DNA of 64,000 nt from Opitutaceae bacterium (GTDB lineage Bacteria; Verrucomicrobiota; Verrucomicrobiia; Opitutales; Opitutaceae): contig JAUSID010000128.1 of NCBI GenBank assembly GCA_030648295.1, positions 5,897-69,896 on the forward strand, in the 5' to 3' direction. The translations under genes and the position numbers were made by a program. The notes beneath the pieces were generated by a model. That model did no database searches. It was not told the origin of the DNA and saw nothing but the letters and a program-made list of their open reading frames with translations. Below, piece by piece: positions 32,350 to 61,578 of this stretch (within the stretch, counting starts at the first letter, position 1; each line of letters starts with the position of its first letter).

Positions 32350-33479
32350 AGGTTCCGTTCCTCGATCTCTCGCTCCAGCATCGCGCCCTCCGCGAGCCGG
32401 CGCTCGCCGCGCTGACCGCGACGTACGACGCGACGCGATTCTGCCTTGGCAAGGATGTCGAGGATTTCGAGCGCAACTTTGGCGCAACGCTCGGCTATCC
32501 GCGCGTACTTGGGATGAACAGCGGCACATCGCCGCTCCATGTTGCGTGCCTGGTCGGCGGGTTCGGTCCCGGCGATGAAGTGATTACGACGCCGTTCACC
32601 TTCATTTCATCCGCCTGGGGCATAAGCTATGTCGGCGCGAAACCGGTGTTCGTGGACATCGAAGAAGGCACCTTCAACCTGGCCCCGGCGAAGATCGCCG
32701 CCGCCATCACGCCGCGCACGAAGGGGATCATCGTCGTGCATCTCTTCGGTCAACCCGCGCGCATGGACGAGATCATGGCGGTCGCCAGGAAGCATAATCT
32801 TTTTGCGATCGAGGATTGCGCCCAAGCCATCGGTGCGCGCTACCTGGGAACGTCAGCCGCCGCCGGGAGCGCGGGCGTCCCGCCCGCCACGCCCGTCGGA
32901 CTGATCGGCGATGTCGGTACCTTCAGTTTCTATCCCACGAAAAATCTCGGCGCATGCGGTGAGGGTGGAGCGTTCGTGTCGCGCGACGAAGCGATTCAAA
33001 CGAAAGCGCGACACATTCGCGTGCATGGATCGGACCGCCGCTATTACCACGACATCGTCGGCGGCAATTTCCGGATGGATGGCTTCCAGGGTGCGCTGCT
33101 CAACGTGAAGCTGCCCCACCTCGGGCGCTGGACGGCGCGCCGGCAGGAAATCGCCGGACGCTTTCTTGCGGGGATCAAGCTCAGCGACCTCCGAATGCCC
33201 GAGCAGCCGGCATACGGCCGCTCCGTGCTTCACCAATTCACCGTGCGCCATCCGCGTCGCGATGCGCTGCGCGAGCACCTGGCGAAACAGGAGATTGGCA
33301 CCGACCTGATCTATCCGGTGCCGCTGCACCTGCAGAAATGTTATTCGGGTCTCGGCTACGGCCGCGGCGCTTTCCCCGTGGCCGAGCGGGCGGCCGACAC
33401 CTGTGTGAGCCTGCCGATTTTCCCCGAACTCACCGATGCGCAGGTCGACCATGTGATCAAGGCCATCAATTCATTCTAG
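32346..33479 (+). CDS. DegT/DnrJ/EryC1/StrS PLP aminotransferase with a short insert
   Basis: NSGT, EDCAQAIG, SFYPTKNLGACGEGG, SLPIFP. Confidence 0.93.
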   Translation: MKVPFLDLSLQHRALREPALAALTATYDATRFCLGKDVEDFERNFGATLGYPRVLGMNSGTSPLHVACLVGGFGPGDEVITTPFTFISSAWGISYVGAKPVFVDIEEGTFNLAPAKIAAAITPRTKGIIVVHLFGQPARMDEIMAVARKHNLFAIEDCAQAIGARYLGTSAAAGSAGVPPATPVGLIGDVGTFSFYPTKNLGACGEGGAFVSRDEAIQTKARHIRVHGSDRRYYHDIVGGNFRMDGFQGALLNVKLPHLGRWTARRQEIAGRFLAGIKLSDLRMPEQPAYGRSVLHQFTVRHPRRDALREHLAKQEIGTDLIYPVPLHLQKCYSGLGYGRGAFPVAERAADTCVSLPIFPELTDAQVDHVIKAINSF

Positions 33480-34316: not shown

Positions 34317-34434
34317 CGCCTCCACCGCCGATGTCATCTAGCGGAAGACAGCGGGCTTTTGGATCTTGGCCGCGCCGAGCAGGCCAACGATCCGCTTGCA
34401 AGGGTCACGAGTCCGTTGGTTAGTTCCGCCCTTC

Positions 34435-37035
34435 ATGTCACCGCGCGAGCTGCCGATCTACGAACTCGAGCATGCGGTCGTGGCGTCGCTGCGTTCGCAG
34501 GGCCGGCTGATCGTACAGGCGCCGACCGGCTCCGGCAAATCGACGCAGATCCCGCAGATGCTCTGGCGGCACGGGCTGCTCGGTGACCGCGGGGAAGTTG
34601 TCGTGCTCCAGCCCCGGCGGCTGGCGGCGCGGCTGCTGGCCAAACGCGTGGCGGAGGAGGCGGGCACTAACCTTGGCGAGGGCGTCGGGTACCAAATCCG
34701 GCTGGAGTCGCGCGTTAGCGAGCGGACACGGATCCGTTTCGTGACCGAGGGAATTCTTCTCCGGCAGATGTCGTTCGATACGTCGCTGCGCGGAATCGCG
34801 GCCATCATATTCGACGAGTTCCACGAGCGGCATCTTTATGGCGACATCTCGCTGGCGCGCGCGGTGCAGATTCAGCAAACCATCCGGCCGGAGCTGAAGA
34901 TCATCGTCATGTCCGCGACGCTCGATGCCGGCGCGCTGAAAAACTATCTCGCGCCTTGCGAGGTGCTCGGGTCGGAGGGCCGCAGTTTTCCGGTGCGAAT
35001 CGAGTACCTGCCGAAGGCGGTGAATTTCGACCAGGAGCCGGTTTGGGAAATCGCGGCGAGGGAGTGCGAGCGCGTGGCGTCCGAATCGGGCGGCGACATG
35101 CTGGTCTTCATGCCCGGCGGCTATGAAATCAGCCGCACCGTCCAGGCGCTCCAGGGAACGCGGGTGCTTCGTGATTTCGTGGTTTTCCCTTTGCATGGCG
35201 AATTGCCGCCGGAGCAGCAGGACCGCGCAGTGGCGCGCTACGATTCGCGCAAAATTATCGTCTCGACGAACGTGGCTGAAACATCGCTCACGATCGAGGG
35301 GGTCACGACCGTCATTGACAGCGGACTGGCGCGCATGGCGCGTTTCGACCCGCATCGCGGAATCAACACGCTGTTGATCGAAAAGATATCGGCCGCGAGC
35401 GCGGATCAGCGCGCCGGCCGGGCGGGCCGCACCGCTCCTGGCGTTTGCGTGCGGCTGTGGACGCAGCGCGAGCACGCGCAGCGCCCGCCGCAGGAGCTGC
35501 CCGAGGTGAAGCGGCTCGATTTGTCCGAGGTCGTCCTGACGCTCAAGGCGAGCGGGATCGACGATGTATTCAGTTTTCCGTGGCTGGAAAAACCCGACGT
35601 CAAGGCGCTCGAGCGGGCGGAGATGTTGCTGGCCGACCTGGGGGCGATTGGGAGTGGCACGGGCGTCTTGCCCGTGAGTTCTTCCGATTCAGATCACGGG
35701 CGGGACGCCTGTGCCACTTCAATCACGGAAGTCGGCCGGAAGATGCTCCGGTTCCCGGTGCACCCACGTTATGCGCGGATGTTTCTCGCCGGGCAGGAGC
35801 GCGGCTGCGTGCGATCGGTCGCACTGATGGCGGCGCTCACGCAGGGGCGCAATTTTCTCCTGCGCGGGGTCCCGCGCGAGGTGGAGGACGCGCGCGAGGA
35901 TGTTCTGGGCGAGGAGCACGAGAGCGATTTTTTCCTGCTCATGCGCGCGTGGCGCTATGCCGACAAGGCAAACTACTCGCTCGATGCGTGCCGCCGGCTC
36001 GGCATCCACGCGCAAGGTGCGCGGCAGGTGGGGCCGTTGTTCGAGCAGTTTCTCGATATCGCGGAGAAGGAGGGACTCGACGTGAGCGAACGCCGGACCG
36101 ACGGCGCCGAAGCGCGCAAATGCGTGCTGGCCGGTTTTTCGGATCAGCTCGCAAAGCGGCTCGATGCGGGGACGCTGCGCTGCGAACTGGTGCACAACCG
36201 GCGTGGGCTCCTGGCGCGAGAAAGCACGATTCAGAAAGCGCCCCTTTTCGTCGCGGCCGAAATCAGCGAGATCGAGGGCCGGGGCGGCGAGATCAACGTA
36301 TTGTTGTCGCTCGGCACCGCGGTGGAGGAGTCGTGGCTGAAGGAGATATTTCCCGCGGATTATCGCGAGACCAGCGGTGTCGTCTACGACGAGCACGCCA
36401 AACGGGTGATGTCGCGGCGGGAGCGGTGTTTTCGGGATCTCGTGCTCGAGGCGAAATCCAGCAGCGATGAAGCGCCGCTCGACGCCGCGGCCGCCTTGCT
36501 CACCAGGGAAGTCGTCGCCGGCCGGCTCAAGCTCGAAGGCTGGGACGAAAACGTCGAGCAGTGGATCACGCGCGTGAACCGGCTGGCGGAATGGATTCCC
36601 GAACTCGAGGTGAACCCGATCACCGAAGCGGATCGCGCGACGCTGATCGAGCAGGTGTGCTACGGCGAGCTCGGGTATCGGGGAATCAAGGACAAGCCGG
36701 TGATGCCGGTGCTCCGCGACTGGCTCACGGTCGAGCAACTCGGCGCCTTGGAGTCGTATCTGCCGGAACGGCTCACGATGGCGAATGGCCGCCGCTCGCG
36801 GGTGACGTATTTCAACGAGGGGCCGCCCGTGCTCAGCGCGCGGATCCAGGAGTTGTACGGGATCGAGGGAAGATTCGCCGTCGGGCACGGCCGGGTGCCG
36901 GTGAAGATCGAGGTGCTCGCGCCGAACCAGCGGCCGATTCAGGTCACGGACGACCTCACGAATTTCTGGCGCGAGGTGTATCCGAAGATCAAGCCCGAGC
37001 TGTCACGCCGCTACCCGCGGCACGAATGGAGATAG
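34435..37035 (+). CDS. hrpB: ATP-dependent RNA helicase HrpB
   Basis: APTGSGKST, DEFHER, MSAT, STNVAETSLT, QRAGRAGR, C-terminal ELSRRYPRHEW. Confidence 0.95.
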   Translation: MSPRELPIYELEHAVVASLRSQGRLIVQAPTGSGKSTQIPQMLWRHGLLGDRGEVVVLQPRRLAARLLAKRVAEEAGTNLGEGVGYQIRLESRVSERTRIRFVTEGILLRQMSFDTSLRGIAAIIFDEFHERHLYGDISLARAVQIQQTIRPELKIIVMSATLDAGALKNYLAPCEVLGSEGRSFPVRIEYLPKAVNFDQEPVWEIAARECERVASESGGDMLVFMPGGYEISRTVQALQGTRVLRDFVVFPLHGELPPEQQDRAVARYDSRKIIVSTNVAETSLTIEGVTTVIDSGLARMARFDPHRGINTLLIEKISAASADQRAGRAGRTAPGVCVRLWTQREHAQRPPQELPEVKRLDLSEVVLTLKASGIDDVFSFPWLEKPDVKALERAEMLLADLGAIGSGTGVLPVSSSDSDHGRDACATSITEVGRKMLRFPVHPRYARMFLAGQERGCVRSVALMAALTQGRNFLLRGVPREVEDAREDVLGEEHESDFFLLMRAWRYADKANYSLDACRRLGIHAQGARQVGPLFEQFLDIAEKEGLDVSERRTDGAEARKCVLAGFSDQLAKRLDAGTLRCELVHNRRGLLARESTIQKAPLFVAAEISEIEGRGGEINVLLSLGTAVEESWLKEIFPADYRETSGVVYDEHAKRVMSRRERCFRDLVLEAKSSSDEAPLDAAAALLTREVVAGRLKLEGWDENVEQWITRVNRLAEWIPELEVNPITEADRATLIEQVCYGELGYRGIKDKPVMPVLRDWLTVEQLGALESYLPERLTMANGRRSRVTYFNEGPPVLSARIQELYGIEGRFAVGHGRVPVKIEVLAPNQRPIQVTDDLTNFWREVYPKIKPELSRRYPRHEWR
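35653..35718. repeat. REP-like palindrome inserted in frame in hrpB
   Basis: AGTGGCACGGGCGTCTTGCCCGTGA ... TCACGGGCGGGACGCCTGTGCCACT: 25-bp arms, 66 nt total. Confidence 0.85.
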
Positions 37036-41448: not shown

Positions 41449-41520
41449 CGTAGCAGCCGAGGTAACGAGGCTGGAGTATTCGACTCACCGGTCGACAGCC
41501 TCCTTACGTCGGCTGCTACG
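41449..41520. repeat. GTAG-type REP doublet
   Basis: cgtagcagccgaggtaacgaggctg ... cagcctccttacgtcggctgctacg. Confidence 0.75.
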
Positions 41521-51709: not shown

Positions 51710-54700
51710 TCACCGGAAATCGTGCGAGGCCTGGGCGGGGAGCGCGACCTCGGTGAGCGCTTCGATCTTTTCGGCCTTCACGTGAATCACGCCGTGCTGA
51801 TTCTGGAGCTTGCCGGTGATCTTCAGCGCCGGTTCCTGCGTCACAACCAGCCGGCGGGCCTCGAACAATTTCGGCACCACGATGACGTTCGCGATTCCCG
51901 TCTCGTCCTCGAGGCTGATGAACACGAAACCTTTCGCCGTGCCCGGCCGCTGGCGGCAGATCACCGACCCCGCGACGATCACGCGTTCACTGTCGCGACC
52001 GACCGTGAGATCACTCGCGCGCCAGATGTCGGGGAGTTGCGGACGGACGAGTGCCATCGGATGCACGCCGACCGTGAGTTCGAGACCCGTGAAGTCGGCG
52101 CGGAAGCGCTCGGGCAGCGTCATCGGTGCGAGCGGCCCTGGGGGCGCGGGCGTCTCGCCCGCATTGCCTGAAACGGCCGCCAGGACGTTCGCGTCGCCAA
52201 TGTCGCCGAAATGCCGGAACAACGCTTCGTCCTCCGACCACGCCGCCTCGACCTGCCACAGCGCGGCGCGTCGATGCGCTGCGAGCGCATTCAGCGCGCC
52301 GACGGCGGCGAGCGCACGCCGCTCCGCCGGATTGAAATTCGTCCGCCGCAGGAAATCGTCGATTGAACTGAACGCGCGCTCCGCTCGCGCGGCAAGCATC
52401 GCGTGTGCGGGCGCCTCGCGCAGTCCCTTCACGTAGCGCAATCCGATCCGAATCGTGTCGGCCGACTCGACCGTGCAGTTCCAGTCCGACGAAGCCACGC
52501 ACACCGGTTTCGCCTTCAGCCCGTGTCGGCGGCCGTCCTGGAGGATGGTCGCGGGCGAGTAGAAGCCCATCGGCTGGTTGTTCAGCAGGCTGGCGGTGAA
52601 CTCCGCCGGGCGATGCACCTTCAGCCAGGTGCTCGCGTAGGCGAGCAACGCGAAGCTGAGCGCGTGTGACTCGGGAAACCCGTAGGCCGCGAACGAGAGC
52701 GCCGATTCGCTCACTTTTTTCACCACGCTCTCGTTGCGGCCTTTCGCGCGCAATGCGGCGCAGAGTTTCGCCAGCGCCCGGTCGAGGCGCGACGTGTTCT
52801 TGGTGAACCCCATCGCCCGGCGGAGTTCCTCCGCTTCGGAACCGGTGAAATCGGCCAGCCGCATCGCCAGTTCGAGCATCTGCTCCTGGAACAGAATCAC
52901 GCCCATCGTTCGCTCCAGGATTGGCCGAACAATCGGTGCGACGCTCGGATCGATGAAATCCGGCTCCTCGAGCTTGTTTCGCCGACGAATGAGGGGATGC
53001 GCGAGGTTGCCGACAATCGGGCCCGGCCGCACAATCGCGACCTGCATCGCCACGTCGTAGAAGCAGGCCGGCCGCATGCGCGGAAGCGACGCCATCTGGG
53101 CCCGGCTCTCGATCTGGAACACGCCAATTGTGTCCGCTTTTTGCATCGCCGCGAAGGTCTCCGGGTCGTCCTGGGGAATCGAATACAGCTCCAGCGGCTG
53201 CCCGCGGTCCGCGCAGAGTTTGAACGTGTCCTGGAGCACGGCCATCATGCCGAGTCCCAGGAAGTCGACCTTCACGATCCCGAGCTCCTCGCAGTCGTCC
53301 TTGTCCCACTGGCCGACGACGCGGCCGGGCATGGACGCGTTTTCCAGCGGCACCACGCGATCGAGCTGGCCCTGCGAGATGATCATGCCGCCCGAATGCT
53401 GGCCGAGATGGCGCGGCAGCCCATGGATCTGTTGATACAGGACGTGTAACGCCGCGGCCCGCGGGTGTTTTTTCGCGATGCCCGACATCGCGAGCTGTTG
53501 CTGCAACTCGAGCGTCTCGGGAAAATCGCCGTTCGCATAGAGGCTCGAAAACCGGTCGAGGGCGTCATCGCCGAAGCCGAGGACCTTGCCGATTTCGCGC
53601 ACGGTGCTGCGTCCGCGGTACGTGATCACGTTTGCGGTCATCGCCGCGCCGCGCGGCTGGTAGCGCTCGTACACGCGCTGGATGATCCGCTCGCGCAGGT
53701 CGCCGCTGGGCAAATCTAGATCGATGTCCGGCCACGACGGATGGCCGTCGCGGCCGACGCGACCCTCGCTGAGGAACCGTTCGAAGAGCAGCCGGTTCGC
53801 AATCGGGTCGACGGCGGTGATGCCGAGCACGTAGCAGACGATGCTGTTCGCGGCGCTGCCGCGACCCTGCACGAGAATGTCGTTTTCGCGGGCGAACCGG
53901 CAGATGTCCCAGACGATGAGAAAATAGCCGCTGAACCCGAGCTTCGTAATCAGCGCGAGCTCCTTTTCGATCTTTTCGCGGATTGGCGGCGTGAGCGCGC
54001 CATAGCGGCGGATGGCGCAGTCGAAGGCGAGCTCACGCAGGAACACGTGCATCGGCTTTCCGTCCGGCGTCGGGTAATCGGGAAACTTGTAGCCCAGGTC
54101 GCGCAGCGTGAACTCCAGTCGCTGCTCCAGTCGCACCGTGTTGGCGATGGCTTCCGGCCAGTCGCGGAACCGCTCCTGCATGTCACGCGGCGATTTCAGG
54201 TGACGTTCGTTGTTGATCGCGAGCCGGCGGCCCGCGACGTCAAGGGTGGTGTGCAGTCTCAGACAGGTGAATACATCGGCCGCGGCGCGGAGCGCTGGCA
54301 CCGCGTAGTTGACGCCGCCGGTCGCGAGTAGCGGCAGCTGGTGCGCGGCCGCGAGATCGGTGAGGAAGGCGAGCTCGCGTTCCTCGCCCCGGATCCGCTG
54401 CCGCTGCAACTCGACGTACAGGCGGTCGCGCCCGAAAATCCCGAGCAGCTTTCGGAGCGCATCACCGGCGGCGCCGGCACCAGCGGCGGCCCAGGCACGG
54501 CGAACGGGTCCCTCCTCGTCGCCCGTGAGCGCGATCAATCCCTCCGCGTAACGTGCGAGTTCCTCCCACGTGGCGAAGCACGGGCGTTTGCGTTCGCGCG
54601 GATCGGCAAAGTGGCTGCGGCTTCCCCGTTCGACGAGCCTCTCGGCCAGCTCGAGGCCTCGAGCCTGCCGAGGGGCAGCCGCAGAGTCTTGGGGATCAGC

Positions 54701-55036
54701 GGCTGGAAGCCGCTGCCACTGATCGACCAATCCCGCCGGCCGCTCGACGAGCTTCGCCTCCGTGATCAGCTGGCACAGATTCTGGTACCCCGTGCGGTTG
54801 GTCACGAGCAGCGGGACGACGCTGCCGTCCGCCATCGTGATCTCGGCGCCGACGCGCGGCCGGAGGTGGTGTTCACTCGCGGGTCCGTAAAGTCGCGGCG
54901 CGCCGTACACGCCGTCGCGATCGAGCAGCGCGAGGGCGGGCAGTTCGACTTCAACCGCGCGCCGCACGAGCTCCTCCGGATTGGAGGCTCCGCGCAAAAA
55001 GCTGAACGCGCTGCGGGCGTGAAGCTCGATGTACAT
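51710..55036 (-). CDS. dnaE2: Error-prone DNA polymerase DnaE2
   Basis: ELHARSAFSFLRG, QGRGSAANS, PDIDLD, YGFPESHA, LLNNQPMGFYSP, RQRPGTAKG, C-terminal SHDFR. Confidence 0.95.
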   Translation of the reverse strand: MYIELHARSAFSFLRGASNPEELVRRAVEVELPALALLDRDGVYGAPRLYGPASEHHLRPRVGAEITMADGSVVPLLVTNRTGYQNLCQLITEAKLVERPAGLVDQWQRLPAADPQDSAAAPRQARGLELAERLVERGSRSHFADPRERKRPCFATWEELARYAEGLIALTGDEEGPVRRAWAAAGAGAAGDALRKLLGIFGRDRLYVELQRQRIRGEERELAFLTDLAAAHQLPLLATGGVNYAVPALRAAADVFTCLRLHTTLDVAGRRLAINNERHLKSPRDMQERFRDWPEAIANTVRLEQRLEFTLRDLGYKFPDYPTPDGKPMHVFLRELAFDCAIRRYGALTPPIREKIEKELALITKLGFSGYFLIVWDICRFARENDILVQGRGSAANSIVCYVLGITAVDPIANRLLFERFLSEGRVGRDGHPSWPDIDLDLPSGDLRERIIQRVYERYQPRGAAMTANVITYRGRSTVREIGKVLGFGDDALDRFSSLYANGDFPETLELQQQLAMSGIAKKHPRAAALHVLYQQIHGLPRHLGQHSGGMIISQGQLDRVVPLENASMPGRVVGQWDKDDCEELGIVKVDFLGLGMMAVLQDTFKLCADRGQPLELYSIPQDDPETFAAMQKADTIGVFQIESRAQMASLPRMRPACFYDVAMQVAIVRPGPIVGNLAHPLIRRRNKLEEPDFIDPSVAPIVRPILERTMGVILFQEQMLELAMRLADFTGSEAEELRRAMGFTKNTSRLDRALAKLCAALRAKGRNESVVKKVSESALSFAAYGFPESHALSFALLAYASTWLKVHRPAEFTASLLNNQPMGFYSPATILQDGRRHGLKAKPVCVASSDWNCTVESADTIRIGLRYVKGLREAPAHAMLAARAERAFSSIDDFLRRTNFNPAERRALAAVGALNALAAHRRAALWQVEAAWSEDEALFRHFGDIGDANVLAAVSGNAGETPAPPGPLAPMTLPERFRADFTGLELTVGVHPMALVRPQLPDIWRASDLTVGRDSERVIVAGSVICRQRPGTAKGFVFISLEDETGIANVIVVPKLFEARRLVVTQEPALKITGKLQNQHGVIHVKAEKIEALTEVALPAQASHDFR

Positions 55037-55175
55037 AAAGGACTAAGGGACTAAGGGACCAAAGGACTAAAAGACTAAGAGACTAAAGGACTAAAGGACG
55101 AACGGAGAACCGAAGAAACATCAAATGAGAGGAGTTTTGTCTTTTGGTCCCTTGGTCCTTTGGTCTTTTGGTCTC
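55037..55175. repeat. Octamer tandem repeats in inverted arrangement
   Basis: 8 x AA(A/G)(G/A)GAC(T/C)-like units at 55037-55100 facing ttttggtc-ccttggtc-ctttggtc-ttttggtc at about 55141-55173. Confidence 0.85.
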
Positions 55176-59258: not shown

Positions 59259-60110
59259 ATGGGACTCATCGACACGCACACGCATCTCGAGTCGTTCGCG
59301 CGCAAGGGCTCGCTGGCGGCGGTGCTCGCCCGCGCGCGTGATGCCGGCGTAGACGCGATGATCACGATCGGAACTTCGCCCGATGACTGGACGCTCTATC
59401 ACGGGATGGCGGCCGGGCATCGTGGCTTCATCCATTATGCGGTCGGGCTTCACCCGTGTTCGGTCGATGCGGCATGGGAGGCGGCGGTCGCGCAAATTGA
59501 AGCGTTCTGGAACCGCAGTGGGTCCGGGATGCAGCCGCAGGAAACAAACACCGGGCGGCTGGAAACCGGTGGCGTTTTTCCCGTCGCGCTCGGCGAGTGC
59601 GGACTCGACCGGTTTCATTTGCCGACGGAGCCCGCGGAGGCTGAAAAGATTTTCCAGTGGCAGCGCGCGGCCTTTGTCGAGCAGCTCGCGATCACGAAGC
59701 GGCTCGCGTGCCCGGTGGTGGTACATTCGCGCGGTGCCTTCCGCGAGTGCGTGGACATCATCGATGCGAGCGGCGTCGATTGGCGCCGCGTCGTGTTTCA
59801 CTGCTTTACGGAAGGCGAGGCGGAGATGGCCGAGTTGACCCGCCGCGGCGGAGTTGGATCGTTCACCGGAATCCTGACCTACAAGAACGCGGATTCAATT
59901 CGGGCGGCGGCGAAAACGCAGGGACTCGGGAAGTTCATGGTGGAAACCGACGCGCCATATCTCACACCGATGCCGCATCGCGGAAAGCCGAACGAGCCCG
60001 CGTTCGTCCGGCACACGGCGGAATTCGCGGCCGCCGAAGTATTTGGCGTCAGCTACGACGAACTTTCCGGATGCGCGTCCGGTAACGCCCGCCAATTCTT
60101 CTCACTCTAG
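59259..60110 (+). CDS. tatD: TatD-family hydrolase with a short insert
   Basis: DTHTH, GLHP, GECGLD, HSR, HCF, ETDAPY. Confidence 0.93.
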   Translation: MGLIDTHTHLESFARKGSLAAVLARARDAGVDAMITIGTSPDDWTLYHGMAAGHRGFIHYAVGLHPCSVDAAWEAAVAQIEAFWNRSGSGMQPQETNTGRLETGGVFPVALGECGLDRFHLPTEPAEAEKIFQWQRAAFVEQLAITKRLACPVVVHSRGAFRECVDIIDASGVDWRRVVFHCFTEGEAEMAELTRRGGVGSFTGILTYKNADSIRAAAKTQGLGKFMVETDAPYLTPMPHRGKPNEPAFVRHTAEFAAAEVFGVSYDELSGCASGNARQFFSL

Positions 60111-61505: not shown

Positions 61506-61578
61506 GCTTGCCCGCCTTCGGCGGCGCCGTAGGCGGCCAGGGTTTACCCGCCTGCGGCGGCGCCGAAGGCGACCAGGG
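61506..61578 (+). repeat. Two tandem copies of a 37-nt REP-like unit
   Basis: gcttgcccgccttcggcggcgccgtaggcggccaggg and gtttacccgcctgcggcggcgccgaaggcgaccaggg. Confidence 0.8.

Follow-up and report, generated by a model that had tools for sequence, protein, structure and literature searches.

How does a conserved bacterial helicase come to carry a long palindrome, read in frame, in the middle of its coding sequence? The question is raised by the hrpB gene (positions 34435-37035, plus strand) in a 64,000-nt stretch of DNA from an Opitutaceae bacterium of the phylum Verrucomicrobiota (contig JAUSID010000128.1 of GenBank assembly GCA_030648295.1, positions 5,897 to 69,896; hereafter, the window). 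The genome, designated G000, is a 9.12-Mb metagenome-assembled genome (MAG) with 63.7% G+C, 294 contigs, and an estimated completeness of 96.6%. An earlier note, made from the sequence of the window, had assigned the 66-nt palindrome at 35653-35718 to an active family of repetitive extragenic palindromes (REPs) that repeatedly enters housekeeping genes. According to the analysis described here, this element is very probably a REP doublet of a family with a GT[A/G]G head (family A), placed in frame within the HrpB winged-helix loop, between LGAI and ITE, where it represents an old copy in a recurrent nest of such elements.

HrpB and its in-frame insert

The gene, assigned from its open reading frame (ORF), Pfam domains, and orthologue alignment, encodes a DEAH-box ATP-dependent helicase. 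The open frame extends from 34366 to 37035, and position 35653 is codon-aligned with it; translation probably starts at the ATG at 34435, because orthologues align from residue 24 onward. The gene is intact and codes for 866 amino acids (aa). Its translation contains the stretches GSGKST, DEFHER, SAT, and QRAGRAGR, which we take to be the helicase motifs, and matches the Pfam domains DEAD, Helicase_C, HA2_N, HA2_C, and HrpB_C, the last of these with an E value of 7.5e-36. Among solved structures, E. coli HrpB is the best relative (6EUD, E = 8e-110), and the alignment with this protein breaks exactly at LGAI/LGAL, just ahead of the insert. The titles of the related HrpB sequences name Opitutaceae, Opitutus, or Nibricoccus.

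The insert, a REPIN-like element (REPINs being inverted REP doublets that form hairpins), comprises 22 codons that are translated to SGTGVLPVSSSDSDHGRDACAT and is flanked by LADLGAIG on one side and SITEVGRKM on the other. Its placement in frame between LADLGAI and ITEVGRKM, as proposed in the earlier note, is correct with regard to the frame, except that one extra G and one S separate the insert from these flanks. The palindrome consists of two 25-nt arms, 35653-35677 and 35694-35718, which are complementary at 22 of 25 positions (88%) and are separated by 16 nt. The left arm (AGTGGCACGGGCGTCTTGCCCGTGA, plus strand) is a family-A unit with two mismatches to the consensus and comprises a GTGG head, a CACGGGC/GCCCGTG stem, and a GTCTT loop. 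The right arm is a unit of the same family in the inverted orientation (minus strand), with a single mismatch to the consensus. The spacer at 35678-35693 (GTTCTTCCGATTCAGA, read on the plus strand) is partly common to the orthologous copy in another genome, G001 (see below).

The sense RNA of this element folds into a single uninterrupted hairpin with wholly paired arms and a free energy of -60 kcal/mol (z = -11.4, with equally good folds in 0 of 200 shuffled sequences), whereas the antisense fold reaches -49.9 kcal/mol and contains three internal mismatches. The three differences between the arms form G·U pairs on the sense strand and A·C mismatches on the antisense strand, which agrees with the earlier description of 25-bp arms whose three differences are all compatible with G-U pairing. 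Identification of the element as a MITE (miniature inverted-repeat transposable element) was considered and rejected: the flanks, GGG/AGTGG...CCACT/TCA, carry no direct duplication, and the arms are two REP hairpins, not the ends of an insertion sequence (IS).

An AlphaFold2 (AF2) model of HrpB built from 37 close orthologues has a mean predicted local distance difference test (pLDDT) score of 54.8, which is too poor for a fold search. In this model, the insert occupies residues 407-428, with pLDDT values below 50 for residues 409-425, and is placed between two short strands after the helix 389-401. This arrangement gives a faint indication that the insert might sit at the hairpin tip of the winged-helix domain; the surface loop proposed in the earlier note likewise receives weak support from a model of such low confidence.

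REP families in the genome

The 25-nt consensus of family A, AGTGGCAC GGGC GTCCC GCCC GTGA, carries a GTGG head, and its 7-bp stem encloses a 5-nt loop. A search allowing up to 4 mismatches to this consensus yielded 199 units on 89 contigs, 125 of them within 2 mismatches, and no matches were obtained with five shuffled versions of the consensus. The GTGG head is preserved in 193 to 196 of the 199 units. Substitutions in the stem come in matching numbers at positions 8/22 (44 T with 45 A), 9/21 (17 with 20), and 11/19 (12 with 13), so the hairpin is maintained. Family B (TGGGAGCGC GGGC GTCCC GCCC GCA) is commoner, with 641 units, and has its head, GGGAGCGC, in common with family C (GGGAGCGCGACCG CCCC CGGTCGC, about 185 units). 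In the doublets, the heads of the units almost always face outward, with 16 A+A- doublets versus a single A-A+ and 103 B+B- doublets versus a single B-B+; this is the REPIN arrangement. Exact counts of two motifs in the genome were 66 for GTGGCACGGGCGTC and 152 for GCGGGCGTCCCGCCCGC. Family A therefore displays the traits of REPs and REPINs: a short palindrome with a GT[A/G]G head, a high number of dispersed copies, mainly extragenic location, and inverted doublets.

The extragenic location was evaluated with our own log-ratio of codon usage, for which 1102 long ORFs of the genome served as the training set; coding status was taken from this score and not from an annotation. A REP cluster was counted as coding if the frame was open and both 240-nt flanks scored as coding, and 5000 random genome positions served as a control. 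Only 10 of the 566 scorable clusters (1.8%) were found in a coding frame, compared to 42% of the random positions; with a lax threshold, 22 of the 566 clusters qualified versus 53% expected. At contig edges, 38 REP clusters are located. These REP families are strongly extragenic, with a small in-frame minority, and the view that the HrpB element derives from a mainly intergenic family is supported by these counts.

Age of the HrpB copy

Orthologues of HrpB from outside the family have a 5-aa loop at the insertion site; the segment is thus absent from distant HrpB proteins, as the earlier note had anticipated. The insert cannot be regarded simply as a lineage-specific novelty, however: all of the first 17 congeners examined have some insert at this site, many of them with REPs of other types. 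The orthologous doublet was identified in the HrpB of G001 (JANXSC01, an independent MAG from another study), where it is 60 nt long, consists of units of the matching type, and has spacer bases in common with the G000 copy. Decayed versions of the doublet are present in G016 and G017.

Between the G000 and G001 hrpB genes, 49% of the four-fold sites differ, although the two loops are 84% identical. Because the doublet is orthologous despite this divergence, the insertion must be old and not recent. The HrpB copy has remained much nearer to the family consensus than neutral sites have, a pattern indicative of conservation at the DNA level or of conversion by other copies of the family. Similar loop identities, 83-87%, were observed in two other pairs of orthologues, L070/L099 and L036/L045.

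Within 2 mismatches of the consensus, family A is represented by the above 125 units in G000, 338 in G016, 80 in G001, and 52 in G007, and by 0-3 units in 27 other relatives. The loop of the G007 orthologue (L003) is a tandem (CCGGAAA/CCGGAGA)n array encoding PETGD repeats and contains no palindrome, despite the 52 family-A units in that genome.

Recurrent occupation of the HrpB and PurL loops

The loop was extracted from 85 distinct Opitutaceae orthologues of HrpB. In 15 of the 85 species, it is a conserved 6-aa (18-nt) loop of the form [GA]G-E-x-K-[ST]; most of the other species carry 10 to 52 extra residues. Loops of 8 aa or fewer are present in 18 species. In about 22 to 30 species, the loop DNA is a near-perfect palindrome of 54-90 nt with a folding energy of -40 to -80 kcal/mol. 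These palindromes have GTAG, GTGG, or GGGAG heads, and their stems are entirely different. The loop is the sole site of large indels in HrpB, with at least 10 extra residues in 53 of the 85 species; a single species has one other insert.

On a tree of HrpB built with the loop masked, at least 10 changes between short and long loops and 21 changes in the strongly palindromic state were counted. Well-supported sister taxa differ in their loops: L095 has a REP doublet and L097 a short loop, the doublet-containing L084 is nested among five short-loop species, and family A in L008 contrasts with another family in L098. Typing of the loops by shared 10-mers over-merged the types in this G+C-rich DNA, so the 48 type changes obtained in this way are indicative only.

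Three of the four tested families of HrpB-loop inserts are multicopy in their own host genomes. Copies of the GTAGCGCCGG type number 20 in G004, whereas G000 lacks this type; the genome of L098 contains 76 copies of the type found in its loop, against a single copy in G001; and the L070 genome contains 33 copies of family C. The exception is the genome of L099 (G076, a 2.8-Mb MAG), whose only family-C units are the two arms of the HrpB palindrome (C26:3786-3845). This L099 copy is 87% identical to the copy in the distantly placed L070 and has identical junctions. It may reflect retention after extinction of the family, transfer, or independent site-specific insertion.

The same behavior is seen in PurL, where the loop between TPQL and LLLIDLG consists of 7 aa in many congeners and is occupied by REP doublets of at least four types in others. 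PurL of G000 contains a second 66-nt A+A- doublet, which reads SGTGVPPMISGKSDHGWDARAT. The entire insert in this protein (L131, C79) is 62 aa long; upstream of its 66-nt family-A doublet it includes additional nested palindromes, and the total folding energy is -102 kcal/mol. Such nesting suggests repeated insertion beside a resident element.

It is well conceivable, albeit short of probable, that the winged-helix loop of HrpB and the loop of PurL are family-wide recurrent nests for REP doublets, produced by site-directed integration or replacement or by selection for a structured insert, with tolerance alone being insufficient. The HrpB loop is occupied in 53 of the 85 species (62%), whereas an occupancy of ~1% was estimated for an average 18-nt intergenic stretch from rough numbers, taking about 600 clusters and assuming ~1 Mb of intergenic DNA. 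Given this difference, a pure tolerance filter seems insufficient. The candidate causes left for the site preference are a slower loss of in-frame copies and integration or replacement that targets REPs already resident.

Two other candidates were considered. A hairpin-prone empty site as a target was rejected, as the 90-nt windows centered on the loop in the 15 short-loop species rank from 3rd to 143rd of 160 windows of the gene, with the median near the middle. Recent recombination moving the loops between species received no support, as flank identity near the loop was no higher than further off in 7 pairs.

Alternative explanations

In the explanation favored here, two inverted 25-nt family-A units were inserted in frame into the winged-helix loop of HrpB, presumably after mobilization as single-stranded DNA by a REP-associated tyrosine transposase (RAYT). 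Survival of the insert is ascribed to its length (a multiple of three), its G+C-rich and stop-free frame, the hydrophilic Gly/Thr/Pro/Asp-rich peptide that it encodes, and a length-tolerant loop, and the peptide would be a neutral or near-neutral passenger in a protein that otherwise keeps all the helicase motifs checked. Three points weigh against this explanation. No A or B unit flanks any of the 11 PF01797 matches or 14 NF047646 matches in the 294-contig, 96.6% complete assembly (1.5 kb were searched around the PF01797 matches and 2.5 kb around the extra NF047646 matches); such a gene may be missing from the assembly, but with no Y1 or RAYT gene flanked by these units and an HrpB copy of old age, the designation of the family as active in the earlier note is left unsupported. 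In addition, the ancestral six codons are mostly lost around the inserts, so that the insertion events were not simple or clean. Finally, with a structure model of such low confidence, it is chiefly the extreme variation in length among the orthologues that speaks for an exposed disordered loop.

The palindrome could instead be kept for a function of the RNA or the protein, either as an mRNA hairpin that modulates translation, folding pauses, or RNase processing or as a recruited peptide loop of the winged helix. The 84% identity of the G000 and G001 arms against 51% identity at four-fold sites fits this alternative, as do the 83-87% loop identities in the L070/L099 and L036/L045 pairs and the mismatches that are all G·U on the sense strand, where the fold is better by about 10 kcal/mol. 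Nevertheless, we consider it unlikely. The pattern of exclusively G·U differences is not a general feature: among 30 palindromic orthologous loops, 13 fold better as sense and 16 as antisense (Wilcoxon p = 0.54), which leaves mRNA-hairpin selection without a general signal. The copy has decayed in the closest relative, G016, the loop is no longer than 8 aa in 18 species (6 aa in 15 of these), and the encoded peptides are wholly different between species. Furthermore, conversion by other copies of the family, or transposase-linked maintenance of the doublet, would account for the conserved arms just as well.

Two further alternatives dispense with a mobile repeat and appear highly improbable. 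The segment might be an ordinary fast-evolving, low-complexity loop of HrpB that became palindromic by chance or through a local inverted duplication, which is consistent with the variation of loop length in every congener and with the plain tandem repeat in G007. This possibility is refuted by the match of both arms to a 25-nt consensus that has ~200 copies in the genome, mostly outside genes, and a doublet of like reading is also present in PurL. An assembly artefact is equally hard to sustain. The MAG is indeed fragmented into 294 contigs, with 38 REP clusters at contig edges, but the HrpB element is situated 35 kb inside a contig of 94 kb without disturbing the reading frame, and its orthologous 60-nt copy with common spacer bases comes from an independently assembled MAG, G001. 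A REP doublet inserted in frame remains the best explanation of the HrpB palindrome.

Transposase genes

A C-terminal remnant of a RAYT, about 70 aa long (YYDRFIRN...YIHNNPV), is encoded in G000 directly after proB (C65:42270-42497). The surrounding region (C65:42241-42580) contains one family-C unit upstream of the remnant and two inverted units downstream. This is the classical REP-RAYT-REP layout with the N-terminal half of the gene missing. Further repeat families occupy the flanks of other RAYT-like or IS200-like genes, and the genome thus contains several REP/Y1 systems.

Three paralogous Y1-like genes, coding for proteins of 327-351 aa (MARKLRLEY...NHYHLALETP), were noticed at C218:5560-5640, C288:2300-2380, and C208:13500-13530. 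Each of them adjoins short tandem repeats, (GGTGAAT)n, (CCGACTA)n, or (AAGGTAA)n, which are multicopy in the genome.

Comparison with known systems

The closest precedent comes from the same family. About 70 intragenic REPs of the GTAG type have been described in Opitutus terrae PB90-1 by Di Nocera, De Gregorio, and Rocco (2013, BMC Genomics 14:522; PMC3733652). One family of these O. terrae repeats encodes the peptides GTGVPPV, HGRDARAT, WHGRPAR, and TGGTPVP, dimers contribute 20-30 aa, and a REP dimer in UvrA encodes GTGVPPVDSGSASDDHGRDARAT; one of the O. terrae REP families has its head mutated to GTGG (PMC3733652). The host genes in that organism include those for DnaE2 (with a REP dimer at residues 934-971), PurL, a RecD-like protein, RNA helicases, and ABC proteins (PMC3733652). 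That study covered one genome and did not address recurrence in a loop across species, its authors having noted only recB in two Xanthomonas species (PMC3733652). The two Opitutaceae share the GT[A/G]G head with a short stem-loop and an overlapping set of host genes, and the four peptides listed above correspond to the three reading frames of family A. The species and the host site are different, and HrpB is not named in the O. terrae list, where HrpA and an 876-aa DEAD/DEAH helicase, the latter carrying its insert at a different place, come closest.

Rickettsia palindromic elements (RPEs), which Ogata et al. are said to have described in 2000 and 2002, reportedly occur in frame in genes for conserved proteins. 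Proteins with RPE inserts are thought to be still functional. RPE-1 is longer, about 100-150 bp, and A+T-rich, and its host is an obligate intracellular alphaproteobacterium. The likeness to the HrpB element is one of behavior only: a palindromic repeat in a conserved gene, a preserved frame, and varying stages of decay. RPEs, the classical parallel, are not known to carry the GT[A/G]G head and differ in composition; their sequence family is taken to be unrelated, and no RPE membership is claimed for the HrpB insert. RPE-4 and RPE-6 have been placed among the CGTC-tagged families, CGTC-1 and CGTC-4 (PMC3733652).

In the REPIN-RAYT systems of Pseudomonas and E. coli, inverted pairs of REPs are present in hundreds of copies, are lineage specific, and have been maintained for long times (PMC3116915; bioRxiv 10.1101/2021.07.10.451892). 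Similarly to these systems, two inverted units form one long hairpin in HrpB, and several RAYT-like genes of the present genome are flanked by their own repeats. However, those REPINs are almost exclusively extragenic, whereas about 2-4% of the clusters are read through in frame here, and the search turned up no RAYT with A or B units beside it.

Translated REPs in Opitutaceae genes have thus already been published, and HrpB adds one host gene and one species to the list. No description of recurrence at one codon position across species was found in the literature searched, and the repeated occupation of a single loop by multiple families in different species may be new. The HrpB insert is a clean example of a selfish or semidomesticated DNA repeat creating a protein loop. 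The reoccupation of the HrpB and PurL loops by differing REP families, with some copies conserved far past neutral expectation, may matter more. These loops provide a natural system for studying how REP doublets choose or keep their sites, an open question for REPIN-RAYT systems, and a means to gauge the insertion load that a conserved enzyme can absorb.

Other in-frame units and palindromes

At least 11 conserved genes of G000 carry REP units in frame. The host proteins in which the units were placed relative to Pfam domains are HrpB, PurL, ABC-F, NuoG, RecD2, PolX, a DUF3516 helicase, a chorismate-binding enzyme, a solute-binding protein, DegT, and DnaE2. The insert in the ABC-F protein is made up of four units and is 43 aa long. 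Some of these units are intact and some are decayed, in line with the earlier suggestion that related units persist in several housekeeping genes at differing stages of decay. That suggestion named degT, dnaE2 (twice), and tatD in the window: the units in degT and at 52139-52163 in dnaE2 proved to belong to family B, and the second dnaE2 palindrome is a strong nested hairpin, whereas tatD has a weak repeat only.

The insert in the DegT/DnrJ/EryC1 family aminotransferase (32853-32891, plus strand; 39 nt, SAAAGSAGVPPAT) contains a family-B unit at 32864-32888. This site was read in 26 congeners, 25 of which have RYRGTPVGLLGDA without an insert; the G000 protein is longer by 13 residues that contain the B unit, and in G016, the closest relative, a version of 10 residues is present in decayed form. 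At either end, the insert adjoins an ACG triplet (GGA ACG / TCA...GCC ACG / CCC), which may represent a 3-nt duplication. The 11 nt ahead of the B unit (TCAGCCGCCGC) fall outside the unit consensus.

The dnaE2 gene is encoded on the minus strand at about 51713-55042. The family-B unit at 52139-52163 lies on the plus strand, antisense to the gene, between the HHH_6 and OB domains, and is read as NAGETPAPP. The second palindrome (54613-54684, minus strand) is located in the PHP domain, whose Pfam match covers 209 residues for 164 profile positions. Its outer arms, GGCTGCGGCTTCC and CAGCCGCAG, match a further REP family with about 133 copies in the genome (GGCTGCGGCTTCCAGCCGCAG), and a second, 20-nt palindrome occupies the would-be loop of these arms, which makes the segment a nested insertion. 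The GGCTGCGGCTTCCAGCCGCAG repeat also flanks an IS200-like gene on contig C85. In tatD, the insert at about 59524-59569 contains a weak 15-nt inverted repeat (80%), and its origin from a REP was not confirmed.

Two additional palindromes of the window are located between genes. The one at 41449-41520 lies a short way downstream of the end (41385) of an O-methyltransferase-like ORF. It is a near-perfect palindrome of 72 nt that has GTAG as its head (CGTAGCAGCCGAGG...CGGCTGCTACG, -48 kcal/mol), and it resembles an intergenic REP doublet from a family distinct from those above. The strongest hairpin of the window, at 61507-61578 between two ORFs (GCCTTCGGCGGCGCCGTAGGCGG...CCGCCTGCGGCGGCGCCGAAGGC, -57 kcal/mol), probably represents another intergenic repeat family.

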